Assembly: GCF_044324875.1 (NCBI RefSeq)
Contig: NZ_CP172185.1
From: Escherichia coli
Lineage (GTDB): Bacteria > Pseudomonadota > Gammaproteobacteria > Enterobacterales > Enterobacteriaceae
Strand: one strand, 5' to 3'
Length of the DNA stretch: 64,000 nucleotides
The position numbers and the translations under genes are program-made. Each line of letters opens with the position of its first letter. Position 1 is the stretch's first letter. Shown in pieces: positions 21,069 to 38,183 of this stretch. Under the pieces are notes generated by a model. The model did no database searches, was not told the origin of the DNA, and worked only from the letters and a program-made list of their open reading frames with translations.

Positions 21069-22568
21069 ATGCTAAATTTATTTGTTGGCCTTGATATATA
21101 CACGGGGCTTTTGTTATTACTTGCTCTGGCATTTGTGTTGTTCTACGAAGCAATCAATGGTTTTCATGATACGGCGAATGCGGTGGCAACCGTTATTTAT
21201 ACTCGTGCCATGCAACCACAACTTGCTGTGGTGATGGCGGCATTTTTTAACTTTTTTGGCGTATTGCTAGGCGGACTTAGCGTTGCCTATGCCATTGTCC
21301 ATATGTTGCCAACCGATTTGTTGCTGAATATGGGGTCAACTCACGGCCTGGCGATGGTCTTTTCCATGCTGCTGGCGGCGATTATCTGGAACCTGGGAAC
21401 GTGGTTCTTTGGTTTACCGGCCTCCAGTTCGCATACCTTGATTGGTGCGATTATCGGCATCGGTTTAACCAACGCGCTGTTAACCGGCTCATCGGTGATG
21501 GATGCGTTAAACCTGCGTGAAGTGACCAAAATTTTCTCCTCGCTGATTGTTTCCCCTATCGTCGGCCTGGTCATTGCGGGAGGTCTGATATTCCTGCTGC
21601 GCCGCTACTGGAGCGGGACGAAAAAGCGTGACCGTATTCACCGCATTCCGGAAGATCGCAAAAAGAAAAAAGGCAAACGTAAGCCACCATTCTGGACGCG
21701 TATTGCGCTGATTGTTTCCGCTGCGGGCGTGGCGTTTTCGCACGGCGCGAACGACGGGCAGAAAGGGATCGGCCTGGTGATGCTGGTACTGGTGGGGATT
21801 GCTCCTGCTGGTTTCGTCGTCAATATGAATGCGTCCGGCTATGAAATTACCCGTACCCGCGATGCCGTCACCAACTTTGAACACTATCTGCAACAGCATC
21901 CTGAACTGCCGCAGAAGTTAATTGCGATGGAACCTCCATTGCCTGCGGCATCGACTGATGGCACGCAAGTAACGGAGTTTCATTGTCATCCGGCAAATAC
22001 CTTTGATGCGATTGCGCGCGTTAAAACGATGTTGCCAGGTAATATGGAAAGCTACGAGCCGTTAAGCGTGAGTCAGCGCAGCCAGCTGCGCCGCATTATG
22101 CTGTGCATCTCTGATACCTCTGCGAAGCTGGCGAAACTGCCAGGCGTCAGTAAAGAAGATCAGAACCTGCTGAAAAAACTGCGCAGCGATATGTTAAGCA
22201 CCATTGAGTACGCTCCGGTGTGGATCATCATGGCGGTAGCACTGGCGCTCGGCATTGGTACCATGATTGGCTGGCGTCGTGTAGCGATGACCATCGGTGA
22301 GAAGATTGGTAAGCGCGGCATGACGTATGCGCAAGGGATGGCGGCGCAGATGACGGCGGCGGTATCTATCGGCCTTGCCAGTTATATTGGGATGCCTGTT
22401 TCCACAACACACGTCCTCTCGTCTGCGGTAGCAGGGACGATGGTGGTGGACGGCGGTGGGTTACAGCGTAAAACGGTAACCAGCATCCTGATGGCGTGGG
22501 TGTTTACTTTACCGGCGGCGATTTTTCTGTCTGGTGGGTTGTACTGGATAGCATTGCAGTTGATTTAA
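21069..22568 (+). CDS. pitB: low-affinity inorganic phosphate transporter (PiT family)
   Basis: 499-aa polytopic [51 protein letters not shown]... Confidence 0.9.
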
Positions 22569-22578
22569 CCTTCCTGAA

Positions 22579-22612
22579 AATGCCCGGTCCTGGCGATCGG
22601 GCATTTCCATTT
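22579..22612. terminator. hairpin between convergent pitB and yghT
   Basis: ATGCCCG ...13 nt... CGGGCAT followed by TTTCCATTTTT. Confidence 0.4.
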
Positions 22613-22616
22613 TTGG

Positions 22617-23309
22617 CTAGTGATAACCACGCGCGGTCATAAAATCCGTAATCGCTTTTTCTGCATCAACCAGCACCTTTTCCAGTGGCTGATTGGCATC
22701 GATATCAACCAGTTGTGCACCACCAAAGGTTAACTGTGGCGTTATTGCAATCTTCCTCGCCAGCGATTCCCGTTTATGGTCGGGTTTACGCGCGCAGGCA
22801 ACTTCAAGGTCAACATTGAGTTTGATGACCAGATCAGGTTTATGGCTCGCCATCCAGTGAAACGCTTTACGTTCCTGGCTTGCCAGCCATGAGACAAACC
22901 GGCCGCCTTCAACGTTAGGCGGGAACACTGTACCATCGTAAGCGCCAGGAATTTGGTCCTGAGGATAACGGTCGGTTAGAACAATTAACCCGCGACGACG
23001 ACAGGCAAGCATATGACGAAAGCGCAGTAAGCGACGGGCGACAAACGCTGTAATTACCAGCGCCGGAACAGGGCCAGGCAATTTTTTTGCTGTTTTCACC
23101 TGATTTCGTTCAATTGTTTTATGTAAGGATTTTCCCATCAACGGTAATTTTGTCACTGCACGACCGACATTTCCGGCCTGTTTTCCTAAATGAACTCTTT
23201 CGGCTGCACCATATTTTTCGACAACGGTAATGAGATGTTCACACACCGTTGACTTGCCTGAACCATCGCTACCAATAACGGCAATTAATGGAGGTGTTAT
23301 TGACTGCAT
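22617..23309 (-). CDS. yghT: P-loop NTPase/kinase-like protein of unknown substrate
   Basis: 230-aa ORF; Walker [10 protein letters not shown]; shares DRYPQ and ARKPDH motifs with the two proteins below. Confidence 0.85.
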
Positions 23310-23482
23310 GAATATATCCTTTAATTTAAATATCCATTAAAAATATTTATTTGGTTAATATGTTTTTATGAAAGCGTAATTCAGGTCAATGTCACAATTA
23401 ACCATTGTCACAATAAGGTTGAACGGATATTCTGAGCACGGACCACGTAATATTCAATACATTATTTGCTGCCGGGTTTTTC

Positions 23483-24196
23483 GTGAATCAACGTAATATG
23501 TCAATAATTAATTCCACGCCAGTGCGTGTTATTGCCATTGTAGGATGTGATGGTTCAGGTAAATCGACCCTCACGGCAAGCCTGGTAAATGAACTGGCAG
23601 CAAGAATGCCAACAGAACACATTTATCTCGGGCAATCGTCCGGGCGAATTGGCGAATGGATTTCACAGCTCCCTGTTATTGGCGCACCTTTTGGGCGTTA
23701 TCTGCGAAGTAAAGCGGCACATGTGCACGAAAAGCCCTCAACACCGCCTGGCAATATTACTGCGCTGGTTATCTATCTGCTTTCCTGCTGGCGGGCGTAT
23801 AAGTTTCGCAAAATGTTGTGTAAAAGCCAGCAAGGCTATCTGCTCATCACCGACCGCTACCCGCAGGTTGAAGTGCCGGGTTTTCGCTTTGATGGCCCGC
23901 AATTGGCAAAAACCACGGGCGGTAACGGTTGGATAAAAATGTTAAGGCAGCGCGAGCTGAAGCTGTACCAATGGATGGCGTCTTATTTGCCCGTATTGTT
24001 GATTCGTCTTGGCATTGATGAACAAACGGCGTTTGCGCGTAAACCTGACCACCAACTGGCGGCGTTACAGGAAAAAATCGCCGTTACGCCGCAACTGACA
24101 TTCAATGGCGCAAAGATCCTTGAACTGGATGGTCGGCAACCAGCCGATGAAATTATGCAAGCGTCACTACGCGCAATTCACGCCGCGCTTTCCTGA
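23483..24196 (+). CDS. yghS: P-loop NTPase/kinase-like protein (paralogue of YghT/YghR)
   Basis: 237-aa ORF (GTG start as printed; alternative ATG 15 nt downstream at MSIINSTP); Walker A GCDGSGKST. Confidence 0.85.
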   Translation: MNQRNMSIINSTPVRVIAIVGCDGSGKSTLTASLVNELAARMPTEHIYLGQSSGRIGEWISQLPVIGAPFGRYLRSKAAHVHEKPSTPPGNITALVIYLLSCWRAYKFRKMLCKSQQGYLLITDRYPQVEVPGFRFDGPQLAKTTGGNGWIKMLRQRELKLYQWMASYLPVLLIRLGIDEQTAFARKPDHQLAALQEKIAVTPQLTFNGAKILELDGRQPADEIMQASLRAIHAALS

Positions 24197-24227
24197 TCAC
24201 CAAAATGGATAGGGGATGATTTAACGA

Positions 24228-24986
24228 ATGGATGCACTACAAACACAAACTGTTAATAGTACAACCGCGCCGCAGCCCAACTACATTCCGGGGCTGATTG
24301 CGGTGGTCGGGTGTGATGGCACCGGTAAATCCACGCTGACCACCGACCTGGTGAAATCGCTGCAACAACACTGGCAAACCGAGCGCCGCTATCTGGGGCT
24401 GCTCTCCGGCGAAGACGGCGACAAAATCAAACGATTGCCGTTGGTTGGCGTCTGGCTGGAACGGCGACTGGCGGCCAAATCCTCGAAAACCCAAAGCATG
24501 AAAACCAAATCTCCAGCGCTATGGGCGGCGGTGATTATGTACTGCTTCTCGCTGCGAAGAATGGCGAATCTACGCAAGGTTCAGCGACTGGCGCAAAGTG
24601 GCGTTCTGGTGGTCAGCGATCGCTTCCCGCAGGCTGAAATTTCGGGCTTTTATTATGACGGACCGGGGATCGGCGTCGAACGTGCGACCGGGAAAATCAG
24701 CATGTTTCTGGCGCAGCGCGAACGGCGTTTATACCAAAAAATGGCGCAATACCGTCCTGAATTAATCATTCGTTTGGGGATTGATATTGATACTGCCATC
24801 TCCCGCAAGCCTGACCATGACTATGCCGAGCTGCAGGACAAAATCGGCGTCATGTCGACGATTGGCTATAACGGCACAAAAATTCTTGAGATTGATTCCA
24901 GAGCGCCCTACAGCGAAGTGCTGGAACAGGCACAGAAGGCGGTTTCTCTGGTTGCCATCGTTTCTGACCGCCGAAGTTTAACTTAA
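24228..24986 (+). CDS. yghR: P-loop NTPase/kinase-like protein (paralogue of YghS/YghT)
   Basis: 252-aa ORF; Walker A GCDGTGKST, DRFPQ, SRKPDH. Confidence 0.85.
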   Translation: MDALQTQTVNSTTAPQPNYIPGLIAVVGCDGTGKSTLTTDLVKSLQQHWQTERRYLGLLSGEDGDKIKRLPLVGVWLERRLAAKSSKTQSMKTKSPALWAAVIMYCFSLRRMANLRKVQRLAQSGVLVVSDRFPQAEISGFYYDGPGIGVERATGKISMFLAQRERRLYQKMAQYRPELIIRLGIDIDTAISRKPDHDYAELQDKIGVMSTIGYNGTKILEIDSRAPYSEVLEQAQKAVSLVAIVSDRRSLT

Positions 24987-25031
24987 GGCTGGCGGGATAC
25001 TTTTTACTATCAACGATAAGGTCAGGCTGAA

Positions 25032-26381
25032 TTGGCGGGTTTTAACATCAAACATTGGTTTGCAGATGGCGCGTTTCGCACCATTATTCGCAATAGCGCC
25101 TGGTTAGGCTCCAGTAATGTCGTGAGCGCCTTGCTGGGTCTGTTGGCGCTCTCGTGTGCCGGTAAAGGGATGACGCCCGCCATGTTTGGCGTACTGGTGA
25201 TTGTGCAATCGTACGCCAAGTCGATCAGCGATTTTATTAAGTTTCAGACATGGCAGTTGGTGGTGCAGTACGGAACACCAGCATTAACCAACAATAATCC
25301 ACAGCAATTCCGCAATGTCGTCTCATTTTCCTTCTCGCTGGATATCGTCAGCGGCGCGGTGGCGATTGTCGGCGGCATTGCCTTACTCCCTTTTCTTTCC
25401 CATTCATTAGGTCTGGATGACCAAAGCTTTTGGCTGGCAGCGCTGTATTGCACGCTCATTCCTTCAATGGCTTCCTCCACGCCGACCGGCATTCTGCGTG
25501 CGGTAGATCGCTTCGACTTAATTGCTGTACAGCAGGCGACGAAACCTTTTCTGCGCGCAGCGGGGAGCGTCGTTGCCTGGTATTTTGACTTTGGTTTTGC
25601 GGGTTTTGTTATTGCCTGGTACGCCTCGAATCTTGTTGGCGGCACCATGTACTGGTGGTTTGCCGCACGTGAATTACGCCGCAGAAATATCCATAACGCG
25701 TTCAAATTGAATCTGTTTGAGTCTGCCCGACACATCAAAGGCGCGTGGAGTTTTGTCTGGTCAACCAACATTGCCCATTCCATCTGGTCGGCGCGTAATT
25801 CGTGCAGCACAGTGTTGGTGGGGATCGTGTTAGGACCCGCTGCCGCCGGGTTATTTAAAATCGCCATGACATTCTTCGACGCCGCCGGAACGCCAGCGGG
25901 TTTACTGGGCAAAAGTTTTTACCCAGAGGTGATGCGTTTAGATCCGCGTACCACCAGACCGTGGTTGTTAGGCGTGAAGTCAGGTTTACTGGCGGGCGGA
26001 ATCGGTATTCTGGTGGCGCTCGCGGTGTTGATCGTCGGCAAGCCGCTCATTTCGCTGGTGTTTGGCGTTAAGTATCTCGAAGCGTATGACCTGATTCAGG
26101 TGATGCTGGGCGCAATTGTGATCTCGATGCTGGGCTTCCCTCAGGAGTCATTGCTATTGATGGCGGGAAAACAGCGCGCTTTTCTCGTGGCGCAAACCAT
26201 CGCCTCAATCGGCTACATCGTATTGCTGTTCATGTTCTGTCATCTGTTTGGCGTGCTGGGGGCTGCATTTGCTTACTTCGGTGGGCAATGTCTGGATGTG
26301 GTGTTCTCGCTAATTCCGACCTTAAAGGCATTTTTTCAGCGCCATTCCTTGCTTTATAACTCAGCCGGAGAGAAATCCTGA
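25032..26381 (+). CDS. yghQ: Wzx/MurJ-like (MOP superfamily) polytopic membrane protein, putative lipid-linked substrate flippase
   Basis: Track ORF is 449 aa with a TTG start; first in-frame ATG about 46 codons in (MTPAMFGVLV). Longer than the 355-aa K-12 YghQ I remember. Start uncertain. Confidence 0.75.
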   Translation: MAGFNIKHWFADGAFRTIIRNSAWLGSSNVVSALLGLLALSCAGKGMTPAMFGVLVIVQSYAKSISDFIKFQTWQLVVQYGTPALTNNNPQQFRNVVSFSFSLDIVSGAVAIVGGIALLPFLSHSLGLDDQSFWLAALYCTLIPSMASSTPTGILRAVDRFDLIAVQQATKPFLRAAGSVVAWYFDFGFAGFVIAWYASNLVGGTMYWWFAARELRRRNIHNAFKLNLFESARHIKGAWSFVWSTNIAHSIWSARNSCSTVLVGIVLGPAAAGLFKIAMTFFDAAGTPAGLLGKSFYPEVMRLDPRTTRPWLLGVKSGLLAGGIGILVALAVLIVGKPLISLVFGVKYLEAYDLIQVMLGAIVISMLGFPQESLLLMAGKQRAFLVAQTIASIGYIVLLFMFCHLFGVLGAAFAYFGGQCLDVVFSLIPTLKAFFQRHSLLYNSAGEKS

Positions 26382-27217
26382 TGATGAGAAAATATTTCCC
26401 GCTTGAGGCGAGCGAGCGTCTATTTGTTGCGATTGAAGAAGATGATGTTGTTGATGCACAGGTCAGTTTGCCGCCGACTATCGCACTAAGTTGTACCACC
26501 GAAATCATCCATGATAATTACGCGTTATGCCTGCAATTCTGGCTCAATGGCGTCAATCGCCAGGAGTTACTGCGTTTAATATGCAAACAGGCCAAAGGCG
26601 ATGAGCTGACTGCTGATGAGCGCAAACAATTTAAATACATGCGAGCGCGCTACAAGCACCTGCGTTTTGCGCAACGGCTGTATTTAAAAAAGCATCAGGC
26701 CGGATTTTTATTCGGCAAAACGACCGTTTTTTTGGGGCGTTTTCAGGACGGCTTTCGTAACGGTAAGAAAAATATTGTGTCGTATTACGGCAACCTGTTA
26801 CGGGTTTATTTAAGCTCTCCGGTCTGGTCGTTGGTGAACTATTCATTACGCCATAGCCAGTTAGAAAGCGTAAGCGGTTTTATTGCCTATCGGCAAAAGC
26901 AAATGCATACCCTGAAAGAGATAATTGCCAAACCGCGACTAACTGGCAGGGAATTTCATGATGTGCGAAAAATCATCAGCCAGCAGGTTTCTTATTACGA
27001 CACCTTAAGATCGCTTGATCCTGAAAATAAAGAGGCGTTACTGATTTCCCGTTTTCTCGCCGCCATTAATGGTCTGATGGGGGATAAGCACGACGACATG
27101 GTGGCGGATGATATGGAAAACCGCCAGTCGTATGATGCACCGGTGGCGCTGGATAGCGATATTCGCCAGCGTTTAGAACTGCTGATTTCGCGTTTCCCAC
27201 TCTATCCGGAGCAATAA
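26381..27217 (+). CDS. hypothetical soluble protein, 278 aa, basic and predicted helical
   Basis: ATG overlaps yghQ stop (ATGA) with GGAGAGAAA Shine-Dalgarno; no family recognised. Confidence 0.6.
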   Translation: MMRKYFPLEASERLFVAIEEDDVVDAQVSLPPTIALSCTTEIIHDNYALCLQFWLNGVNRQELLRLICKQAKGDELTADERKQFKYMRARYKHLRFAQRLYLKKHQAGFLFGKTTVFLGRFQDGFRNGKKNIVSYYGNLLRVYLSSPVWSLVNYSLRHSQLESVSGFIAYRQKQMHTLKEIIAKPRLTGREFHDVRKIISQQVSYYDTLRSLDPENKEALLISRFLAAINGLMGDKHDDMVADDMENRQSYDAPVALDSDIRQRLELLISRFPLYPEQ

Positions 27218-27777
27218 TGCCATCTCGTTGGATTTTCGCTCTGATCATCGCACTCTTAGCGCCAGGCGCGGTGGCACACAATTTCGTCACTGGCAAAACG
27301 GTTACCCCTGTTTATATCCAGGAAGGCGGTGAGTTGCTTCTGAAAAGCGACGACGAAATTCACTACCAAAAGTGGAACAGCACACAGCTGGCGGGAAAAG
27401 TTCGCATTATTCAGTATATCGCCGGGCGTAAGTCGGCGAAGAAAAAGAACTCACTGTTAATTAAAGCGGTTGAAGCGGCAAACTTTCCGCAGGATCGTTT
27501 TCAGCCCACCACCATTGTGAACACCGATGATGCCATTTTTGGTACTGGCTATTTTGTCGTTGGCAAAATCGAAAAAAATAAACGCCGCTATCCGTGGGCG
27601 CAATTCGTTATTGACGGCAATGGACAGGGACGCGTTGCCTGGCGGTTGCCGGAGCAGAGTTCAACCATTCTGGTGCTGAATAAAGACGGGCAAATTCAGT
27701 GGGCAAAGGACGGCAGCCTGACGCCGGAAGAGGTAGATCATGTCATTGCGCTGGCGCAGAAACTGATCAATGAATAA
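27217..27777 (+). CDS. secreted/periplasmic protein, YtfJ-like, 186 aa
   Basis: N-terminal signal peptide MPSRWIFALIIALLAPGAVA; start overlaps previous stop (TAATG); resemblance to YtfJ is from memory. Confidence 0.55.
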   Translation: MPSRWIFALIIALLAPGAVAHNFVTGKTVTPVYIQEGGELLLKSDDEIHYQKWNSTQLAGKVRIIQYIAGRKSAKKKNSLLIKAVEAANFPQDRFQPTTIVNTDDAIFGTGYFVVGKIEKNKRRYPWAQFVIDGNGQGRVAWRLPEQSSTILVLNKDGQIQWAKDGSLTPEEVDHVIALAQKLINE

Positions 27778-27807
27778 AAAATTCAAAGGATTGAGGGCGT
27801 TAGCGAG

Positions 27808-28878
27808 ATGAAGCTGGTTGAACACTACATCATGCGTGGTACGCGCCGTCTGGTGTTGATTATCGTCGGTTTTCTGATCTTTATTTTCGCCAGCTACTCC
27901 GCACAGCGTTATCTGACCGAAGCGGCAAATGGGACATTAGCTCTTGATGTTGTGCTGGATATCGTTTTCTACAAAGTGCTGATTGCACTGGAGATGTTGT
28001 TACCTGTTGGACTGTATGTGTCAGTTGGCGTGACGCTAGGGCAGATGTATACCGATTCGGAAATTACCGCTATCTCTGCGGCGGGGGGCAGTCCGGGACG
28101 CTTGTACAAAGCCGTTCTTTATCTGGCGATACCGCTAAGTATTTTTGTCACCCTTCTGTCGATGTATGGTCGTCCGTGGGCTTATGCGCAGATTTATCAA
28201 CTGGAGCAACAGTCACAGTCGGAGCTGGATGTTCGCCAGTTGCGGGCAAAGAAATTTAACACTAACGATAACGGACGAATGATCCTTTCCCAGACGGTTG
28301 ATCAGGATAATAATCGCCTGACTGACGCGCTGATTTATACTTCTACTGCCAATCGAACCCGCATTTTCCGCGCCCGTTCGGTTGATGTGGTTGACCCATC
28401 TCCCGAGAAACCGACCGTTATGTTGCACAACGGGACAGCCTATCTTCTCGATCATCAGGGGCGTGACGACAACGAACAGATCTACCGTCATCTGCAATTA
28501 CATCTGAATCCGCTGGATCAAAGCCCTAACGTCAAACGCAAAGCGAAATCGGTCACGGAGCTGGCGCGCTCCGTCTTTCCAGCCGATCATGCCGAACTGC
28601 AATGGCGACAAAGCCGTGGCCTGACAGCATTGTTGATGGCGCTGCTGGCCATTTCATTAAGTCGGGTAAAACCGCGGCAAGGGCGATTTTCAACATTATT
28701 GCCACTGACGTTGCTGTTTATTGCCATTTTTTATGGCGGCGACGTCTGCCGTACGCTGGTGGCTAACGGCGCGATTCCCCTCATTCCTGGTTTGTGGTTA
28801 GTACCCGGACTCATGCTAATGGGCCTGCTGATGCTGGTCGCACGCGACTTCTCTTTGCTGCAGAAATTTTCCCGATGA
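27808..28878 (+). CDS. YjgP/YjgQ-family permease (LptF-like paralogue)
   Basis: 356-aa ORF with N-terminal TM cluster, long periplasmic middle region and C-terminal TM helices, the LptF/LptG architecture. Confidence 0.7.
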   Translation: MKLVEHYIMRGTRRLVLIIVGFLIFIFASYSAQRYLTEAANGTLALDVVLDIVFYKVLIALEMLLPVGLYVSVGVTLGQMYTDSEITAISAAGGSPGRLYKAVLYLAIPLSIFVTLLSMYGRPWAYAQIYQLEQQSQSELDVRQLRAKKFNTNDNGRMILSQTVDQDNNRLTDALIYTSTANRTRIFRARSVDVVDPSPEKPTVMLHNGTAYLLDHQGRDDNEQIYRHLQLHLNPLDQSPNVKRKAKSVTELARSVFPADHAELQWRQSRGLTALLMALLAISLSRVKPRQGRFSTLLPLTLLFIAIFYGGDVCRTLVANGAIPLIPGLWLVPGLMLMGLLMLVARDFSLLQKFSR

Positions 28879-29954
28879 ATGTTTTCAGTCGCTATTTAAT
28901 CCGTCATCTCTTTCTCGGTTTTGCCGCCGCCGCAGGGCTATTGCTGCCGCTTTTTACCACCTTCAACCTGATTAACGAACTGGATGATGTCAGCCCGGGT
29001 GGTTATCGCTGGACTCAGGCGGTGCTGGTGGTGCTGATGACCTTACCGCGCACACTGGTCGAACTTTCGCCGTTTATCGCATTATTGGGAGGGATTGTTG
29101 GCCTGGGGCAGTTATCGAAAAACAGTGAGCTTACCGCCATTCGCAGCACGGGGTTTTCTATCTTCCGTATTGCACTAGTGGCGCTGGTTGCCGGGATATT
29201 TTGGACTGTTTCGTTAGGCGCGATAGATGAGTGGGTGGCGTCGCCATTGCAGCAACAGGCGCTGCAAATCAAATCGACTGCCACCGCGTTGGGGGAGGAC
29301 GATGACATTACCGGCAATATGCTTTGGGCCAGGCGCGGTAATGAATTTGTGACGGTGAAATCGCTGAACGAGCAGGGCCAGCCTGTGGGCGTGGAGATAT
29401 TTCATTATCGCGACGATCTCTCGCTCGAATCCTACATTTTTGCACGCAGTGCCTCCATTGAAGACGACAAAACGTGGATCCTGCATGGTGTGAATCATAA
29501 AAAATGGTTGAATGGCAAAGAAACGCTGGAAACATCAGATAATCTTGCCTGGCAATCGGCCTTCACCAGTATGAATCTTGAAGAGTTATCGATGCCGGGA
29601 AATACTTTTTCTGTCCGTCAACTTAATCATTACATCCATTATTTGCAGGAAACTGGGCAACCCAGCAGCGAATACCGCCTTGCACTGTGGGAAAAACTGG
29701 GACAACCCATCCTGACCCTGGCGATGATTTTGCTGGCTGTGCCGTTTACCTTTAGTGCCCCGCGTTCGCCTGGGATGGGTAGCCGTCTCGCTGTAGGCGT
29801 CATCGTGGGCTTACTTACCTGGATCAGCTATCAAATCATGGTCAATCTGGGATTGCTATTTGCGTTGAACGCACCTGTTACCGCGCTCGGTTTACCGGTA
29901 GCGTTTGTGCTGGTGGCGTTGAGCCTGGTGTATTGGTATGACAGACAACATTAA
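28875..29954 (+). CDS. YjgP/YjgQ-family permease (LptG-like paralogue)
   Basis: Track ORF 28794..29954 is over-extended; start MNVFSRYLIRHLFLGF overlaps the upstream stop (ATGA), giving 359 aa with LptG-like topology. Confidence 0.7.
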   Translation: MNVFSRYLIRHLFLGFAAAAGLLLPLFTTFNLINELDDVSPGGYRWTQAVLVVLMTLPRTLVELSPFIALLGGIVGLGQLSKNSELTAIRSTGFSIFRIALVALVAGIFWTVSLGAIDEWVASPLQQQALQIKSTATALGEDDDITGNMLWARRGNEFVTVKSLNEQGQPVGVEIFHYRDDLSLESYIFARSASIEDDKTWILHGVNHKKWLNGKETLETSDNLAWQSAFTSMNLEELSMPGNTFSVRQLNHYIHYLQETGQPSSEYRLALWEKLGQPILTLAMILLAVPFTFSAPRSPGMGSRLAVGVIVGLLTWISYQIMVNLGLLFALNAPVTALGLPVAFVLVALSLVYWYDRQH

Positions 29955-29988
29955 ACCCGCCGTGGCGCAACACCACAGCGGGCTCACA

Positions 29989-31161
29989 TTACTGCTTCAG
30001 AGTAGCGAACGCTTGAATGATGGCATCAATTTGCTCACGACTGTGGGCAGCGTTTACGCTACAGCGCAGCAGCGTGATGCCTGCAGGCGCGGCAGGTGGC
30101 AGGATAAGATTCACATAAACGCCCAGCGAAATAAGCTCGCGCCAGATGCGTAAACCTTCCTCTTTCGAACCGATTATTACTGGCACTACCGGGCTAATAT
30201 GTGAACTTAACTCATAACCCAGTTTTTGCAGACCGTCATACAGATGGTTGGCATTATCCATCAGCTTTTGCCGCAACTCTGGTTGTGTAGCAATGGTTCT
30301 TAACGACGAGCGCACGGTCGCAATGCAGGACGGAGAAGGAGAGGCGGTAAAAATATACGGGCGGCTGCCGTAGCGCAGCACTTCCATCGCTTCCGAACCG
30401 ACAGCAAAACCGCCAATCGAGGCCAGACTTTTACTGAAAGTACCAACGATAATATCCACATCATCTTCAACGCCAACGGCTTCAGCCAGTCCGCGCCCCG
30501 TTGCGCCTAACACGCCAAACGAATGCGCTTCATCGACAATCAAATAACCACCGAGACGACGTTTGATATCAACAATTTCCGCCAGCGGCGCAACGTCACC
30601 GAGCATACTGTAGATGCCTTCAACGATGATAATCGCCTCTTTTGCCCGTTCACCGAGGCGAACCATGCGCCGTTCCAGATCTTTAGCATCGTTATGGCGG
30701 AAACGAATAATTTCCGCGCCACCGAGAGAACAGGCGTCATAAATACTGGCGTGGCTGTCGGCATCCAGTAACACCACGGCGTTATGGTCGGCAAGTGCGC
30801 TGATGACGCCTAAATTAGCGGTATAACCGGTTGAAAAAACGATAGCGGTAGGGCGATTAAAAAACTCGGCGATCTCTTTCTCTAACGCCAGATGCGGCGC
30901 ATAACTGCCGTTTGCCATACGAGAACCGGTGGTGCCGGTGCCTTGGGCCGCTAACGCTGCCTGACCTTCGGCGATGGCATCATGATTGAAGGTTAATCCG
31001 AGATAATTATTGGTCCCGGCCAGAATCACTTTTTTATTGCCGATCCGGCCTTCGGTGGCGGAATACACTTCATCAATACAGGTACCAAACGGCGTTAACC
31101 CGTTGTCACTAAATTGCAGTCGCTCGCCAGCAAGACGCGCATATTTATCGTATAGCCCCAT
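29989..31161 (-). CDS. PLP-dependent alpha-oxoamine synthase, serine-palmitoyltransferase-like
   Basis: 390 aa; motifs DEAHSFG and VGTFSKSLASIGGF (PLP lysine about residue 244, codon near 30430..30432). Confidence 0.8.
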   Translation of the reverse strand: MGLYDKYARLAGERLQFSDNGLTPFGTCIDEVYSATEGRIGNKKVILAGTNNYLGLTFNHDAIAEGQAALAAQGTGTTGSRMANGSYAPHLALEKEIAEFFNRPTAIVFSTGYTANLGVISALADHNAVVLLDADSHASIYDACSLGGAEIIRFRHNDAKDLERRMVRLGERAKEAIIIVEGIYSMLGDVAPLAEIVDIKRRLGGYLIVDEAHSFGVLGATGRGLAEAVGVEDDVDIIVGTFSKSLASIGGFAVGSEAMEVLRYGSRPYIFTASPSPSCIATVRSSLRTIATQPELRQKLMDNANHLYDGLQKLGYELSSHISPVVPVIIGSKEEGLRIWRELISLGVYVNLILPPAAPAGITLLRCSVNAAHSREQIDAIIQAFATLKQ

Positions 31162-31409
31162 TATTTATTCTCCAGCCATGGAAGTAGTGTTTCCATTAAT
31201 TGCGCAGGGGTTTTGACATCCAGCAGAATATTAATAGGAATGGAAATATCGAATCTGTCTTCCAGCATCATTAAGAGATCCATCACTTTGATCGACTCCA
31301 GGCCAAGATCGTTGACGAGATCGCTGTCGGGCTTAATTTCCACACCGTTTTCGACCAAATCCTGTAAACAGGAAAGGATGTAATCCATTACTATTTCACG
31401 ATTTACCAT
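31161..31409 (-). CDS. acyl carrier protein (dedicated, 82 aa)
   Basis: Small acidic protein with DLGLESIKVMDL (candidate phosphopantetheine serine); stop overlaps the downstream synthase start. Confidence 0.7.
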   Translation of the reverse strand: MVNREIVMDYILSCLQDLVENGVEIKPDSDLVNDLGLESIKVMDLLMMLEDRFDISIPINILLDVKTPAQLMETLLPWLENK

Positions 31410-31440
31410 AGAAACGTTAACACACCTTTAAACAAGACAA

Positions 31441-32355
31441 TCAAAATAGCCCGTTGCGTAATGCGTGTTCCAGGCTAATCCCGGGAAACCAATTAATATC
31501 TTCAGAAATACGGTTATTACTTGCTGACCAGTCGGCGTGGGTTAATTCACGGATTTTCGAGCGGGTCAGCATAGGTTCTTTACCTGCCAGGCGACTCAAC
31601 GTGGTACTGATATCCGCAAGGCAGGTGAGTACCGACAGAGGAATACCAACCATTCGAACGGAACCACAACGGGCGTCGGCGGCAAGCTGTCTTACGCGTT
31701 GCCAGTCATAGCCGCCGGCGACGCCATCGCATAATTCATAGGTTTGCGTCTGTACAGTTTCGGCGCTTAACCACTGCCCCACGGCTTGCGCGAAATCGGT
31801 GACGTGCAGGAAAGAGAGCTGTGTATCTGGCGCACCAAGTCGTGGCAGTAGGCCGCGCAGCATCCAGTCAAACAGCGGTTTTAACTCTTTATCGCCGGGA
31901 CCATACACGGCTGTCGGGCGAAAAATGCCCAGCGTAATTTCGTCAGCCATTGCGGTCAGTCGTTGTTCGGCGACGTGTTTGGAATTTGCGTACCAGGAGA
32001 GTTCGGGATGGCGCGCCGCCAGCGAAGAGATAAACAGAAAACGTTGGCAAAAGCCGCTCTCTTTTGCCGCTTGCATCAGGCGCAGGCTGCCGTCAACGTT
32101 ACAGCGGGTAAAAATCTCTTCTTTGTGTCCGCGCACTTGTCCGGCGCAATGGACCACCGCGCTGGCTCCGGCAACCAGTTCGCTAAGCGAATGTGTATCT
32201 TCCAGCGAACCGCGCACCCAGATGAGATTATCATTGACGTGAGCGCGGGCAGTACGCGTCAATGCGCGAACGTGAAAGCCGCGGGCGAGCAGGTTATCGA
32301 TAATATATTTACCGATAAACCCGGTAGCGCCCGTCACCGCGACAGTTTGATTCAT
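31441..32355 (-). CDS. NAD(P)-dependent epimerase/dehydratase-family (extended SDR) oxidoreductase, putative keto-reductase
   Basis: 304 aa; Rossmann VTGATGFIGKYI, catalytic YANSK; start overlaps upstream ligase stop by 4 nt. Confidence 0.75.
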   Translation of the reverse strand: MNQTVAVTGATGFIGKYIIDNLLARGFHVRALTRTARAHVNDNLIWVRGSLEDTHSLSELVAGASAVVHCAGQVRGHKEEIFTRCNVDGSLRLMQAAKESGFCQRFLFISSLAARHPELSWYANSKHVAEQRLTAMADEITLGIFRPTAVYGPGDKELKPLFDWMLRGLLPRLGAPDTQLSFLHVTDFAQAVGQWLSAETVQTQTYELCDGVAGGYDWQRVRQLAADARCGSVRMVGIPLSVLTCLADISTTLSRLAGKEPMLTRSKIRELTHADWSASNNRISEDINWFPGISLEHALRNGLF

Positions 32356-34073
32356 GCCAGGGATTCCTGCACATGAAGGCTTGCAGCATAAGCCTTCTGA
32401 TAGCGTTTTTTCGCTTCCGCACGGGCAGGCTTGCCGGAGGACGTTCGGGGAATACTGTGGGGCGGCAACAGATCGATAGCCGCGGTCACGCCAAATTCGC
32501 TTTGGATCCGTGCTGCCAGCGCGTGGATAAGCTGCCCGCGACGTTCTTCATCGCTGATCCGACACTGGATCTGCAAAATGATTTTTTCCTGGGCGGTAAC
32601 AAAAGCAATCGCATCGCCAGAATGAATTTCCGGTTCCTGTTCCGCAATATATTCAATATCTTGCGGCCAGATATTGCGGCCACGAATAATAATCAGATCT
32701 TTAATGCGTCCGGTGACATACAGATAACCGTCCAGCAGATAACCGAGGTCGCCGGTGTCTAACCAGCCCGTCGCGGCAATCTCGTCTTGTGAAATCTGGT
32801 CGCCAAAGTAACCGCTCATCAGGCTAGGGCCGGAGATGCAAATATGGCCTACCACACGTTCCGCGACAGGTATACCTGCTTCATTGCGGATTTCAATGCC
32901 ATGTTCCGGCAACGCTTTACCGCAGTTGACGAAAGTCGATACGGCGCGTGTTTCAGCATCCGGCGCGACGGCTTTGCCCTGATATTCGAGGATGTCGCGA
33001 TCCACTTCGTTAACCACAACCCCGGAAGCTTCATCAGAGAAGCTGACAGCCAGCGCATTTTCTGCCAGTCCGTAGCACGGCATGAACGTTTTATCGTCAA
33101 AGTTAACCTGACGAAAACATTCAGCGAATTGATGGAGTTGTTCTGCGGAGATCGGTTCTGCGCCAATACCAGCGACGCGCCAGCAGGAAAGATCCAGTTC
33201 AGCGAGATCTTTTTCATTCACGCGGCGCTGGCACAATTCATAGCCAAACGGCGGCGCAACGGAAACGGTGCCGCGATTTTTACTGATCAATTTAAGCCAT
33301 TGCAGAGGACGCATGGCAAAATCCTGAGTGCGCAAATAATCTACTGAGAGCTGCGTGGCGACGGGGGTCAGGAGAAAGCCGACCAGTCCCATATCATGGT
33401 AGAAAGGCAGCCAGGAGACGCAGCGGTCGCCAGGGCGTAATTTAATGCCATCGTGGCTTATAGCACGTAGATTAGCCATCACTTCGCGATGGGTGATAAT
33501 GACGCCACGGGGAAAACGGGTGCTGCCGGAGGTGTACTGGAGGTAGGCGATATCGTTCGGAACTGGACGCTGGAGTGCAACATCGGCTTCCGGTAATGCC
33601 TTAAACCAGGCGTGGCTTAAAACATGTAATTCGGGTTTGTTATGCGTCGCGGCATTGACCAGCGGTAACCACTCATCACCAGTGATAATGGCTGCGGGCT
33701 GGCAACTTGCCAGTAAACCCTGCAGTTTGGCGCTCCAGGAATCCCGCTGACCGACGCCCATTGGAATCGCCAACGGGACGGCGACTAAGCCGGCATACTG
33801 GCAGGAAAAAAAAGCCTCTACGAACCCGCTACTGGTTTCGGCAATCAGCGCCACGCGATCGCCTTTTTTCAGGTTCAGCGATAACAACCGCTTCGCACCA
33901 GCTTCGGCACGCGCTTTTAACGTCTGATATTCCAGTTGATCTTCAAGTTGGCAACGTCTGTCATAAAAATTCATTCCGGCGCTACTCAGAGCGGCGTAGT
34001 CCAAAGCATCAACCAGCGTTGGAAAATCGGCATAGCGCATAGGTAGGGAATGCGTAAAGATTTTATTAGACAT
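32352..34073 (-). CDS. fatty acyl-AMP ligase / acyl-ACP synthetase-type adenylating enzyme
   Basis: Track ORF 32352..34100 (582 aa); AMP-binding motif YTSGSTRFPRGV. Start uncertain (candidates at 34100, 34073, 34040); 34073 ATG chosen. Confidence 0.75.
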   Translation of the reverse strand: MSNKIFTHSLPMRYADFPTLVDALDYAALSSAGMNFYDRRCQLEDQLEYQTLKARAEAGAKRLLSLNLKKGDRVALIAETSSGFVEAFFSCQYAGLVAVPLAIPMGVGQRDSWSAKLQGLLASCQPAAIITGDEWLPLVNAATHNKPELHVLSHAWFKALPEADVALQRPVPNDIAYLQYTSGSTRFPRGVIITHREVMANLRAISHDGIKLRPGDRCVSWLPFYHDMGLVGFLLTPVATQLSVDYLRTQDFAMRPLQWLKLISKNRGTVSVAPPFGYELCQRRVNEKDLAELDLSCWRVAGIGAEPISAEQLHQFAECFRQVNFDDKTFMPCYGLAENALAVSFSDEASGVVVNEVDRDILEYQGKAVAPDAETRAVSTFVNCGKALPEHGIEIRNEAGIPVAERVVGHICISGPSLMSGYFGDQISQDEIAATGWLDTGDLGYLLDGYLYVTGRIKDLIIIRGRNIWPQDIEYIAEQEPEIHSGDAIAFVTAQEKIILQIQCRISDEERRGQLIHALAARIQSEFGVTAAIDLLPPHSIPRTSSGKPARAEAKKRYQKAYAASLHVQESLA

Positions 34074-34444
34074 ATACACCACGAAAAAATTGGATATCAA
34101 AAATAAAATGACAATAATGCGGTGGATTATATAGGCATAAAAGATAAATGAGATAGTATTTTCATCAGTGTGAAAATGAACATTGATTTAAATAATGAGT
34201 TTGAGTTTTTTTGTTTTTATTGTGAATGATATTTAATTTATGAATGTATTAAGAAGAAGCCTTGTCCGGTCGCCTTAAATCGACAAAAGGCATTGTGGCG
34301 CTTCTGTGTAGTCTCTGACCTTATCGTAATCATTAATAAATACTATTTATTCGTCGTTTGTATTCATTGGGTTGATTATTAAGGTGCCGTTCGTTGCTGT
34401 TGCAACCTGTTTGTCACCGTTAATTATTTGTTACCCACAGAACT
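34074..34444. promoter_or_regulatory. AT-rich divergent control region between the ligase operon and yghO
   Basis: About 370 bp non-coding and strongly AT-rich, between divergently oriented starts. Confidence 0.45.
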
Positions 34445-35587
34445 ATGGAATGCGATCTGCTGATGATTAAAATTGAAAAAGTAATTAATAAAAATGACCT
34501 TAAGGCATTTATCGCTTTTCCGTCATCACTTTATCCCGACGATCCAAACTGGATACCCCCTTTATTCATTGAACGCAACGAGCATTTGTCTGCGAAAAAT
34601 CCGGGGACGGACCATATCATCTGGCAGGCGTGGGTGGCAAAAAAAGCAGGGCAGATAGTTGGGCGTATTACCGCGCAAATCGATACCTTGCACCGCGAGC
34701 GTTACGGCAAAGATACCGGTCATTTCGGCATGATTGACGCCATTGATGATCCGCAGGTTTTTGCCGCGTTGTTTGGCGCAGCGGAAGCGTGGTTGAAGTC
34801 ACAAGGTGCAAGTAAGATCAGCGGTCCTTTCAGCCTGAATATCAATCAGGAAAGCGGATTACTGATTGAAGGTTTCGATACACCACCCTGTGCGATGATG
34901 CCACACGGCAAACCGTGGTATGCCGCGCATATTGAACAATTGGGTTATCACAAAGGCATTGATTTACTGGCGTGGTGGATGCAGCGAACCGATCTCACTT
35001 TCTCTCCGGCCCTAAAAAAACTGATGGATCAGGTGCGCAAAAAAGTGACCATTCGCTGCATCAATCGCCAGCGGTTTGCCGAAGAGATGCAGATCCTGCG
35101 TGAGATTTTCAACTCTGGCTGGCAGCATAACTGGGGATTTGTGCCGTTTACCGAACATGAGTTCGCGACTATGGGCGATCAGCTTAAGTACCTGGTGCCG
35201 GACGATATGATCTACATCGCCGAGATTGATTCTGCACCCTGTGCGTTTATTGTCGGCTTACCGAACATCAACGAGGCGATTGCCGATCTGAACGGATCGC
35301 TCTTTCCCTTCGGCTGGGCAAAATTGCTGTGGCGTTTAAAAGTCAGCGGTGTGCGAACTGCGCGAGTACCGCTGATGGGCGTGCGGGACGAGTATCAGTT
35401 TAGCCGCATCGGCCCGGTGATTGCGCTGTTATTGATTGAAGCCTTACGCGATCCGTTTGCCCGCCGGAAGATCGATGCGCTGGAAATGTCATGGATCCTC
35501 GAAACCAATATAGGCATGAATAACATGCTGGAACGCATTGGGGCGGAGCCGTACAAGCGTTACCGATTGTATGAAAAGCAGATTTAA
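34445..35587 (+). CDS. yghO: YghO-family protein, predicted acyl-CoA N-acyltransferase-like fold (intact here)
   Basis: 380-aa ORF MECDLLMIKIEKVINKNDLKAFIAFPSS... adjacent to glcC as yghO is in K-12; fold assignment is from memory. Confidence 0.65.
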   Translation: MECDLLMIKIEKVINKNDLKAFIAFPSSLYPDDPNWIPPLFIERNEHLSAKNPGTDHIIWQAWVAKKAGQIVGRITAQIDTLHRERYGKDTGHFGMIDAIDDPQVFAALFGAAEAWLKSQGASKISGPFSLNINQESGLLIEGFDTPPCAMMPHGKPWYAAHIEQLGYHKGIDLLAWWMQRTDLTFSPALKKLMDQVRKKVTIRCINRQRFAEEMQILREIFNSGWQHNWGFVPFTEHEFATMGDQLKYLVPDDMIYIAEIDSAPCAFIVGLPNINEAIADLNGSLFPFGWAKLLWRLKVSGVRTARVPLMGVRDEYQFSRIGPVIALLLIEALRDPFARRKIDALEMSWILETNIGMNNMLERIGAEPYKRYRLYEKQI

Positions 35588-35607
35588 TACCAGATCCTGT
35601 TAAGCGC

Positions 35608-35656
35608 AGGGGCGATCCCTCGCCCCTCGGGGAAAGGGTTAGGGTGAGGGTGAAAA
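35608..35656. repeat. GC-rich palindromic intergenic element between convergent yghO and glcC
   Basis: AGGGGCGA tccc TCGCCCCT perfect dyad followed by GGGGAAAGGGTTAGGGTGAGGGTG. Confidence 0.4.
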
Positions 35657-35662
35657 CTCGGC

Positions 35663-36433
35663 TCACATTCCCACCTTGTTCATCTCCAGCGGCACCGCCG
35701 AGCGAATCAAATGGTGGCCTTCCAGCTCGATATCGTGGAGATTCTTTTTCACGGTCCGCACATGATCGCGTGCTGCGCGCTGGGCGACGTGCGGCAGCCG
35801 CTGCAACACCGCGTTGTAGATCCGCGCATGCTGGCGATCGATCTGCTTTTTTTGCTGTGGTCGATGGTAGAGATTATTTACGCTGGCAAACACTGAATTA
35901 AACATCAGATCGGTCAATGATTGCAGCGTAAACACCAACACCTGATTGTGAGAAGCCTGACAAATGGCGAGATGGAAAGCGTGATCCAACTGCGCATGTT
36001 CGATCAGCGAAATCTCTTTGTTGTTCTCACTGGCGGCGAGCATTTTTTCATAACAGCGGGTTATCACAACAAAATCAGCCTGGGTTCCCAGCGTTGCCGC
36101 AAGCCTTGCCGATTCACCCTCCAGCAATGCGCGAACGTCGAGCAGATCGTACAGCGTTCGCGGCTGCGTGCTGAACAGATGAATTAGCGGGCTGGTGTCC
36201 TGCACCCGATTAAGCCGTGCGACACGAGAATCGCGACCCTGCGCCGTTTCAATAATCCCGCGCCCGCGCAGCACGGTCAGCCCTTCACGCAGTGCGGAGC
36301 GTGAGAAGCCGAGCTTTTCACACAGTCGACGTTCCGAGGGAAGCGGCTGACCGACCTTCAGTACGCCGTCGATAATTAACCGTTCGATACTCTCTGCAAC
36401 CACTTCGCAAATAGGGCGACGTTCATCTTTCAT
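35663..36433 (-). CDS. glcC: GntR/FadR-family transcriptional activator of the glycolate operon
   Basis: Start MKDERRPICEVVAESIERLIIDGVLKVGQPLPSERRL (codon 21 of track ORF). Confidence 0.9.
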   Translation of the reverse strand: MKDERRPICEVVAESIERLIIDGVLKVGQPLPSERRLCEKLGFSRSALREGLTVLRGRGIIETAQGRDSRVARLNRVQDTSPLIHLFSTQPRTLYDLLDVRALLEGESARLAATLGTQADFVVITRCYEKMLAASENNKEISLIEHAQLDHAFHLAICQASHNQVLVFTLQSLTDLMFNSVFASVNNLYHRPQQKKQIDRQHARIYNAVLQRLPHVAQRAARDHVRTVKKNLHDIELEGHHLIRSAVPLEMNKVGM

Positions 36434-36683
36434 TCCCGGACCTCGTGCACAGGTAGGACCAATTTTTCTGTTCTTGACTCGCAAAACACGCACATCACGT
36501 AAGTGATTATGTTACATCAATTTAACATTAAGTTAACCAAGACAAGGTCACAGAGCTGGAAAAAAAATGGTCTGACCGGTAGCTAAAGAGATAGACGAAA
36601 ACGAAAAGCCCGCTTAATAACTGTTCACAGAAGCAGCGCGCAAAAATCAGCTGCCACACAACACAACAAAGCGAAGCCTACTC
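36434..36683. promoter_or_regulatory. glcC / glcDEFGBA divergent promoter region
   Basis: 250-bp non-coding interval between divergent glcC and glcD; inference from position. Confidence 0.45.
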
Positions 36684-38183
36684 ATGAGCATCTTGTACGA
36701 AGAGCGTCTTGATGGCGCTTTACCCGATGTCGACTGCACATCGGTACTGATGGCACTGCGTGAGCATGTCCCTGGACTTGAGATCCTGCATACCGATGAG
36801 GAGATCATTCCTTACGAGTGTGACGGGTTGAGCGCGTATCGCACGCGTCCATTACTGGTTGTTTTGCCAAAGCAGATGGAACAGGTGACGGCGATTCTGG
36901 CTGTCTGCCACCGCCTGCGTATACCGGTGGTGACCCGTGGTGCAGGCACCGGGCTTTCTGGTGGCGCGCTGCCGCTGGAAAAAGGTGTGTTGTTGGTGAT
37001 GGCGCGCTTTAAAGAGATCCTCGACATTAATCCCATTGGTCGCCGCGCGCGCGTGCAGCCGGGCGTGCGTAACCTGGCGATCTCCCAGGCCGTTGCGCCG
37101 CATAATCTCTATTACGCGCCGGATCCTTCCTCACAAATCGCCTGTTCAATTGGCGGCAATGTGGCGGAAAATGCCGGTGGCGTACACTGCCTGAAATATG
37201 GTCTGACCGTACATAACCTGCTGAAAATTGAAGTGCAAACGCTGGACGGCGAGGCGCTGACGCTGGGATCGGATGCGCTGGATTCGCCTGGTTTTGACCT
37301 GCTGGCGCTGTTCACCGGATCGGAAGGTATGCTCGGCGTGACCACCGAAGTAACGGTGAAGCTGTTGCCGAAGCCGCCCGTGGCGCGGGTTCTGTTAGCC
37401 AGCTTTGACTCGGTAGAAAAAGCCGGACTTGCAGTTGGTGACATCATCGCCAATGGCATTATCCCCGGCGGGCTGGAGATGATGGATAACCTGTCGATCC
37501 GCGCGGCGGAAGATTTTATTCATGCCGGTTATCCCGTCGACGCCGAAGCGATTTTGTTATGCGAGCTGGACGGCGTGGAGTCTGACGTACAGGAAGACTG
37601 CGAGCGGGTTAACGACATCTTGTTGAAAGCGGGCGCGACTGACGTCCGTCTGGCACAGGACGAAGCAGAGCGCGTACGTTTCTGGGCCGGTCGCAAAAAT
37701 GCGTTCCCTGCGGTAGGACGAATCTCCCCGGATTACTACTGCATGGATGGCACCATCCCGCGCCGTGCCCTGCCTGGCGTACTGGAAGGCATTGCCCGTT
37801 TATCGCAGCAATATGATTTACGTGTTGCTAACGTCTTTCATGCCGGAGACGGCAACATGCACCCGTTAATCCTTTTCGATGCCAACGAACCCGGTGAATT
37901 TGCCCGCGCGGAAGAGCTGGGCGGGAAGATCCTCGAACTCTGCGTTGAAGTTGGCGGCAGCATCAGTGGGGAACATGGCATCGGGCGAGAAAAAATCAAT
38001 CAAATGTGCGCCCAGTTCAACAGCGATGAAATCACGACCTTCCATGCGGTCAAGGCGGCGTTTGATCCCGATGGTTTGCTGAACCCAGGAAAAAACATTC
38101 CCACGCTACACCGCTGTGCTGAATTTGGTGCCATGCATGTGCATCACGGTCATTTACCTTTCCCTGAACTGGAGCGTTTCTGA
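36684..38183 (+). CDS. glcD: glycolate oxidase FAD-binding subunit
   Basis: 499-aa ORF MSILYEERLDGALPDVD... Confidence 0.95.
   Translation: MSILYEERLDGALPDVDCTSVLMALREHVPGLEILHTDEEIIPYECDGLSAYRTRPLLVVLPKQMEQVTAILAVCHRLRIPVVTRGAGTGLSGGALPLEKGVLLVMARFKEILDINPIGRRARVQPGVRNLAISQAVAPHNLYYAPDPSSQIACSIGGNVAENAGGVHCLKYGLTVHNLLKIEVQTLDGEALTLGSDALDSPGFDLLALFTGSEGMLGVTTEVTVKLLPKPPVARVLLASFDSVEKAGLAVGDIIANGIIPGGLEMMDNLSIRAAEDFIHAGYPVDAEAILLCELDGVESDVQEDCERVNDILLKAGATDVRLAQDEAERVRFWAGRKNAFPAVGRISPDYYCMDGTIPRRALPGVLEGIARLSQQYDLRVANVFHAGDGNMHPLILFDANEPGEFARAEELGGKILELCVEVGGSISGEHGIGREKINQMCAQFNSDEITTFHAVKAAFDPDGLLNPGKNIPTLHRCAEFGAMHVHHGHLPFPELERF

Follow-up and report, generated by a model that had tools for sequence, protein, structure and literature searches.

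Four tightly packed minus-strand genes in an Escherichia coli chromosome (assembly GCF_044324875.1, contig NZ_CP172185.1) raise the question of which compound a ligase, a short-chain dehydrogenase/reductase (SDR), an acyl carrier protein (ACP), plus a synthase dependent on pyridoxal phosphate (PLP), would make together. They occupy positions 29989–34073 of the 64,000-nucleotide stretch analysed here (the window, to which all unqualified positions refer), which corresponds gene for gene to the pitB-yghT-yghS-yghR-yghQ ... yghO-glcC-glcDEFGB region of RefSeq genomes. An initial annotation, made from the sequence alone, had proposed a long-chain amino ketone that is subsequently reduced to a sphingoid-base-like product. 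We conclude, with a probability of about 0.9, that the four genes are aasR-epi(cerR)-acpR-spt, the operon for sphingolipid initiation in E. coli. This operon is already known from RefSeq annotation, from a crystal structure of the ligase and from biochemical reconstitution.

The open reading frame (ORF) listing and a reading of the reverse strand yield four intact minus-strand ORFs. In the order of transcription, these are aasR (32352..34073, 573 aa), encoding a fatty acyl-AMP ligase (FAAL; EcFAAL) for a dedicated ACP; epi, a cerR homologue (31441..32355, 304 aa), encoding an extended SDR and putative 3-oxo reductase; acpR (31161..31409, 82 aa), encoding a specialised ACP; and spt (29989..31161, 390 aa), encoding a serine palmitoyltransferase (SPT). 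The gene overlaps and motifs listed in the initial annotation are all present on the sequence: the tetranucleotide ATGA at 32352–32355 is common to the ligase stop and the SDR start, and the TAATG at 31161 places one base in both the ACP stop and the synthase start, while a spacer of 31 nt separates the SDR and ACP genes. A mechanical reading takes the ligase ORF back to a TTG at 34100; its 573 residues are counted from the ATG at 34073. We prefer this ATG because it and the bases just 5′ of it (…TGGTGTATATGTC…) are kept across enterobacterial genera. A conservation scan with Spt as the query and one genome per species gave 56 loci, over which a tblastn matrix was computed. The four ORFs are real genes and not chance ORFs, since they have strong family matches, ratios of non-synonymous to synonymous substitution (dN/dS) of 0.02–0.15 against orthologues, indicative of strong purifying selection, and the same four-gene order in ~30 other species.

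The closest described counterpart is the ECD_02850–02854 set of BL21(DE3) (yghO/aca, aasR, epi, acpR, spt), which occupies the same chromosomal position, flanked by yghQ and glcC, with its genes in the same order and overlapping in the same way. Their products are 96.4–100% identical to those of the window, the differences being allelic only; the RefSeq start of the BL21 ligase lies 11 codons downstream. RefSeq labels the block ‘fatty acyl-AMP ligase | NAD-dependent epimerase/dehydratase | acyl carrier protein | spt: serine palmitoyltransferase’, and among 5426 complete E. coli genomes, 4067 contain the four genes at ≥80% coverage, about 25% being without them.

The identity of the synthase is central to the assignment. 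It scores 600.1 bits on the NCBIfam serine palmitoyltransferase model NF047599 (cut-off 500) and falls below the cut-offs of the sister models for bioF (TIGR00858, 334 versus 426), Kbl (298 versus 460), ALAS (220 versus 339) and CqsA-type enzymes (221 versus 428). The model that it matches is the beta-proteobacterial one; on the alpha model it reaches 430 bits, short of the cut-off of 670. Its best matches in the PDB are all bacterial SPTs, with E = 8e-112 for 2JG2, and it is 47% identical to the Sphingomonas paucimobilis SPT (SpSPT) over 382 residues, compared to 29% for E. coli BioF and 32% for Kbl. His159, Asp231, His234, Lys265 and Arg390 of SpSPT, which we take to be its catalytic and carboxylate-binding residues, align to His137, Asp210, His213, Lys244 and Arg366 of the synthase. 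The PLP-lysine (Lys244), the His/Asp/His set and a carboxylate-binding arginine are thereby all represented. The motifs DEAHSFG and GTFSKSLASIGGF are present, and the lysine lies in a TFSKS context shared with SpSPT, in contrast to TFGKG in BioF and TLGKA in Kbl; the initial annotation had named this context as an SPT pattern, which holds for these comparators. Arg378 of SpSPT, considered below, is not conserved.

The locus has the tripartite arrangement of the Rhodobacteria type, with acpR directly before spt and the FAAL gene two genes upstream of spt, and this aasR/acpR/spt arrangement recurs in all Enterobacterales, Pseudomonas and Caulobacteraceae loci that we examined. The synthase is a serine palmitoyltransferase and not a BioF or Kbl. 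With the soluble, homodimer-type SPTs of S. paucimobilis and S. wittichii (2JG2, 2X8U) it has the TFSKS motif and the catalytic set in common. BioF and Kbl belong to the same fold-type I PLP family, have the same overall length and align at the invariant Lys, His and Asp, and they differ from Spt in acyl donor and genomic context.

The biochemistry proposed in the initial annotation, namely a synthase assay and the loading of the ACP by the ligase, has largely been published for proteins 98–100% identical to those of the window. The synthase itself is 99.5% identical to ECD_02854. Co-expression of AasR_Ec, AcpR_Ec and SPT_Ec leads to 3-oxo-sphinganine in vivo (Padilla-Gomez et al. 2022, PMC9386255), and the BL21 Spt forms this compound from L-serine and a C16 acyl thioester both in cell extracts and in vivo (PMC9386255). 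Given L-[14C]serine, SPT_Ec favours acyl-AcpR as the donor above palmitoyl-CoA, in an in vitro assay that employed the Caulobacter AcpR (PMC9386255). AasR_Ec is functional with its own ACP and not with the Caulobacter ACP (PMC9386255). The two outcomes that would have spoken against the proposal, a synthase confined to pimeloyl or acetyl donors and an ACP that the ligase does not accept, did not occur in this work.

The ligase scores 873 bits on the NCBIfam FAAL model NF006624 (cut-off 600), carries the motif YTSGSTRFPRGV, and is 97.9% identical to ECD_02851. It is essentially the same protein as EcFAAL (PDB code 3PBK), with ~99% identity over all 573 residues and only a handful of substitutions, and it therefore matches a structurally defined FAAL that has the FAAL-specific insertion. 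Patil et al. 2021 (PMC8460268) showed that EcFAAL acylates holo-EcACP but does not accept CoA, and the enzyme has been crystallised with lauroyl- and myristoyl-adenylate (C12/C14). The initial annotation is thus supported in its view of the ligase as a FAAL with an ACP as its acyl acceptor; the feature that it attributed to an N-terminal region is, however, an insertion inside the N-terminal domain. The word ‘sphingolipid’ does not appear (0 occurrences) in the FAAL papers PMC8460268 and PMC11837247.

The ACP is divergent in sequence and remains below the cut-off of every NCBIfam ACP model (best score 35.6 bits versus 71). It contains the motif DLGLESI, in which Ser39 is the predicted 4′-phosphopantetheine site, and is 100% identical to ECD_02853, a protein that incorporates β-alanine and hence carries 4′-phosphopantetheine (PMC9386255).

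The SDR belongs to Pfam family PF01370 (NAD-dependent epimerase/dehydratase, E = 5e-23), contains GATGFIG and YANSK, and is 96.4% identical to ECD_02852. Being an extended SDR with GxxGxxG and YxxxK motifs and a syntenic orthologue of Caulobacter CC_1164, it has the features of the CerR/Epi family, and we consider it a putative reductase of the 3-oxo group of 3-oxo-sphinganine or of an oxo-ceramide.

Immediately divergent from aasR lies yghO (34445..35587, plus strand), whose product is homologous to bacterial ceramide synthase (bCerS/Aca, CC_1154), an N-acyltransferase, and which the initial annotation had missed. YghO is 99.7% identical to ECD_02850. It returned no match among Pfam and NCBIfam models, and for this protein, as for a 278-residue hypothetical protein described below, only structure prediction and a fold search were informative. 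Structure prediction with AlphaFold (AF2), based on 26 orthologues, gave a model (pLDDT 82.7) that in Foldseek resembles tandem-GNAT N-acyltransferases, with E ~1e-14. In related loci yghO is always divergent from aasR. It thus combines a predicted GNAT-type N-acyltransferase fold, orthology to CC_1154 and linkage to spt, as expected for a bCerS/Aca. Because of this divergent gene, the end product is probably an N-acylated (dihydro)ceramide rather than a free sphingoid base, which corrects the initial proposal. The ceramide-synthase and exporter genes have accordingly to be added to the sphingolipid system.

A further known system close to that of E. coli is found in Caulobacter crescentus, where CC_1165–CC_1162 and CC_1154 (ccna_01220–01223 and bcerS, ccna_01212) provide the same five functions with the same aasR-epi-acpR-spt order. 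Published identities between the two species are 42% for AasR, 34% for Epi (ECD_02852 versus CC_1164, E = 7e-38; PMC9386255 Table S2), 41% for AcpR, 53% for Spt and 44% for Aca (ECD_02850 versus CC_1154, E = 1e-107; PMC9386255). For the syntenic genes of the Caulobacteraceae locus in our set (L041), we obtained 53% for Spt, 39% for the ACP, 34% for the SDR, 43% for the FAAL and 42% for YghO, in agreement with the published figures. The Caulobacter locus also contains LptF2/LptG2 paralogues and a flippase-like gene; its ceramide synthase gene, however, lies about eight genes away from aasR. A 2026 preprint draws ‘sphingolipid operons’ of E. coli UTI89 beside those of Caulobacter.

Taken together, these assignments suggest the following pathway. 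The FAAL would adenylate a long-chain fatty acid and transfer the acyl group to the 4′-phosphopantetheine of AcpR, and not to CoA. Spt, the PLP enzyme, would then join acyl-AcpR and L-serine, releasing CO2 and forming 3-oxo-sphinganine. YghO, with its predicted tandem-GNAT fold, would N-acylate the base, and the SDR would, before or after this, reduce the 3-oxo group to yield dihydroceramide. Finally, transport of the lipid to the outer membrane would probably fall to the LptF2/LptG2 paralogues. The first two steps have been demonstrated experimentally in the literature for the near-identical proteins described above, while we infer the remaining three from the Caulobacter orthologues and the conservation of linkage. 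Two orders have been proposed in bacteria, reduction followed by acylation or acylation followed by reduction, and localisation data from Caulobacter favour the second (PMC11087976); the homologous Caulobacter reductase has been argued to act on oxo-ceramide after N-acylation and not on the free base (PMC11087976).

The overlapping stop and start codons, together with a single strong hairpin after spt, indicate that aasR-epi-acpR-spt is one co-translated transcript. This hairpin (29952..29986, minus strand) lies 3′ of the spt stop, has a 16-bp stem and overlaps the 3′ end of the convergent lptG2. Its predicted energy is −33 kcal/mol (z = −6.6), and none of 200 shuffled sequences folded as well; its T-run is weak. 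It is a probable bidirectional terminator. A scan for consensus promoters and terminators gave counts at the level of shuffled sequence, with only this hairpin standing out, and no Rfam family reached its gathering score in a search for structured RNA in 22000–37000. The divergent region between aasR and yghO (34074..34444, 371 bp) is AT-rich, with 32% GC, and presumably holds promoters and regulatory sites; it contains, ~50 nt upstream of the ATG of aasR, a TATAAT-like block that is partly conserved between genera.

Several observations weigh against the assignment. Arg378 of SpSPT, which contacts the serine carboxylate, corresponds to Leu354 in the synthase. For the E. coli SDR and YghO, the enzymatic functions given here are putative. 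Caulobacter CerR was localised to the periplasm (PMC11087976), whereas in the E. coli SDR the Rossmann motif stands at the very start and no signal peptide is evident, which makes both the site and the order of the reduction uncertain. In the literature that we searched, no paper describes a sphingolipid from lipid extracts of native E. coli, or its head group, regulation or role in the gut or in infection, and BL21(DE3) with an empty vector, although it carries the locus, gave no visible 3-oxo-sphinganine by thin-layer chromatography (TLC; PMC9386255). This last result suggests that the operon may be silent in laboratory conditions, and it may need a particular inducing condition.

These latter points lead to the most serious alternative, in which the genes are intact but effectively cryptic, a horizontally acquired or ancestral cluster that is unexpressed, yields no lipid and is heading for loss as in K-12. 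K-12 MG1655 is without the segment corresponding to 26101–34484 of the window (8.4 kb), and an IS5 element (insH9) sits at the junction (NC_000913 3130146–3131340); owing to this IS5-associated deletion, the K-12 yghQ is truncated and yghO has lost its native start and is annotated with a different one. The quarter of complete genomes without the locus, the absence of a native lipid from the literature searched, the negative BL21(DE3) control and the low GC content of the control region, a kind of DNA that is often silenced, would all be in line with such a scenario. The locus has, however, been maintained by selection. The dN/dS values of all 13 linked genes lie between 0.02 and 0.19 in all informative comparisons, including those across genera, and the gene set has been kept despite at least three rearrangements across the Enterobacterales. 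Moreover, when BL21(DE3) was fed 3-oxo-sphinganine, spots resembling sphinganine and ceramide appeared on TLC, which the authors credit to the chromosomal ECD_02852 and ECD_02850 (PMC9386255). We therefore regard a cryptic locus as improbable.

The conservation that argues against decay has two layers. A rigid core, consisting of yghO divergent from aasR-SDR-acpR-spt, is found in ~30 species, among them Escherichia, Citrobacter, Pseudocitrobacter, Hafnia, Sodalis, Serratia, Tatumella, Mangrovibacter, Pluralibacter, Rosenbergiella, Pantoea, several Pseudomonas, Stutzerimonas and one Caulobacteraceae genome. In Enterobacterales, eight more genes, yghT, yghS, yghR, yghQ, a gene for a 278-aa hypothetical protein, a YtfJ-family gene, lptF2 and lptG2, remain close to the core (within ~20 kb), although their arrangement takes at least three different forms. 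The retention of all eight through rearrangement suggests a functional unit.

A second alternative assumes that the synthase uses glycine, alanine or cysteate, or makes a CqsA-like α-hydroxyketone, the product being a non-sphingoid amino-ketone lipid or an autoinducer. The α-oxoamine synthase family is functionally plastic, the relatives of the synthase in the PDB include a cysteate-C-fatty acyltransferase (28eh, E = 7e-60) and CqsA (2wk8, E = 7e-35), and the replacement of Arg378 by leucine would be compatible with a different amino acid. We nevertheless judge this reading highly unlikely, as the synthase passes the SPT model and fails those for CqsA-type enzymes, bioF, Kbl and ALAS, its 99.5%-identical counterpart from BL21 incorporated L-[14C]serine into a product resembling 3-oxo-sphinganine, and homologues of a ceramide synthase and a reductase are linked to spt. 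A CqsA-type autoinducer synthase or cysteate acyltransferase was rejected on the model scores and the published serine labelling.

That the synthase might be a spare BioF or Kbl paralogue using pimeloyl or acetyl donors has practically no chance of being correct: general family resemblance is all that favours it, whereas the scores under the curated cut-offs, the direct alignment to both E. coli enzymes, the different context of the PLP-lysine, the long-chain FAAL and dedicated ACP as partners, and the published activity with a C16 donor contradict it, the assays having already refuted it.

With a sphingolipid-initiation operon as the preferred reading, the neighbouring genes can be viewed as candidates for the later fate of the lipid. 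Convergent with spt lie lptF2 (27808..28878, plus strand; TIGR04407, 318 bits), encoding an LptF paralogue and putative permease of a sphingolipid exporter, and lptG2 (28875..29954, plus strand; TIGR04408, 304 bits), encoding an LptG paralogue. The two genes overlap via an ATGA and are linked to spt in both Enterobacterales and Pseudomonas. In Caulobacter, cells making anionic sphingolipid require the homologues of the two (preprint 10.64898/2026.04.12.717747), and the Caulobacter LptF/LptG counterparts have been implicated in sphingolipid export via the housekeeping LptB.

Further upstream on the plus strand lie three accessory genes. A YtfJ-family protein (27217..27777, 186 aa; TIGR01626, 213 bits) travels with spt in Enterobacterales. 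It is preceded by the gene for the 278-aa hypothetical protein (26381..27217), which has no Pfam or NCBIfam match and is predicted to adopt a CHAD-like, all-helical fold. The orthologue of this gene in Escherichia sp. E1V33 (L009:13945–14778) has an in-frame stop and may be a pseudogene or reflect a sequencing error. The third gene, yghQ (25032..26381, 449 aa), encodes a membrane protein resembling MOP flippases, with a weak match to NF007773; a 33%-identical homologue adjoins the ligase gene in the Caulobacteraceae locus, and a potential flippase, CC_1166, has been noted in the Caulobacter locus (PMC11324152).

The remaining accessory genes, yghT (22617–23309, minus strand), yghS (23483–24196, plus strand) and yghR (24228–24986, plus strand), encode paralogous P-loop proteins that are weakly dTMP-kinase-like, with sub-threshold matches to dTMP kinase models and hits to Pfam AAA and thymidylate-kinase families. 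They are linked to spt in Enterobacterales and, at 37–71% identity, in Pseudomonas. We considered whether they could be homologues of the Caulobacter ceramide kinase CpgB, and rejected this since CpgB is of the LCB5/DAG-kinase type. A sequence search of the PDB with YghR returned nothing useful, and literature searches on the function of yghQRST found nothing relevant. A role of the neighbouring genes as a defence system was likewise discarded, as a PADLOC scan gave trivial P-loop hits only. Unlike Caulobacter, E. coli carries yghT/S/R and the CHAD-like and YtfJ-like proteins, and no LptC2 was seen. In the one Caulobacteraceae locus, YghQ was the only E. coli accessory protein for which our searches detected a homologue; the Cpg protein sequences were not used as queries.

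These genes allow a more speculative proposal, which we put forward only tentatively and consider rather less than an even bet. Most wild E. coli and many Enterobacterales might make an outer-membrane sphingolipid whose head group is unlike the ceramide phosphoglycerate of Caulobacter, under certain conditions, with YghT/S/R, the CHAD-like protein (a polyphosphate-binding fold), the YtfJ-like periplasmic protein, YghQ and LptF2G2 making or handling it. From the kinase-like and CHAD-like folds, our guess would be that the head group contains phosphate.

Some further observations concern the sampling of the locus and its surroundings. Among 4165 matching genomes, 157 are ≥99% identical over 29989–34073, most being 95–99% identical, and the closest match (99.8%) is an isolate from green-monkey stool in The Gambia; either the window comes from a sparsely sampled lineage or its locus is unusually diverged. 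Serratia sp. M24T3 has a complete locus (L018, contig026) and, in addition, a second acpR-spt pair (L028, contig03) with 69% and 79% identity and no other locus genes nearby. In a 273-bp contig assigned to Alkalicoccobacillus porphyridii (L064), the last 35 Spt residues are 100% identical to the window protein, and this is probably E. coli contamination of the assembly. Between the ends of yghO and glcC sits a GC-rich palindromic element of ~84 bp (35594–35677, …GGGGCGATCCCTCGCCCCTCGGGGAAAGGGTTAGGGTGAGGGTG…) that has no counterpart at the K-12 site and that we take to resemble a boxC-type intergenic repeat. Over the last part of the window (62001–64000), the GC content falls to 0.40, compared to 0.52 overall.

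For the operon itself, the present analysis adds nothing beyond the existing annotation and papers. The uncharacterised accessory block and the native lipid form a separate lead, of moderate strength. In three-quarters of sequenced E. coli there is a complete ceramide pathway that selection maintains, together with dedicated Lpt-type exporters, and five K-12 y-genes, yghO, yghQ, yghR, yghS and yghT, gain a plausible context as remnants of this locus. If the proposal of a native outer-membrane sphingolipid is true, these K-12 orphan genes would be relics of a sphingolipid pathway.

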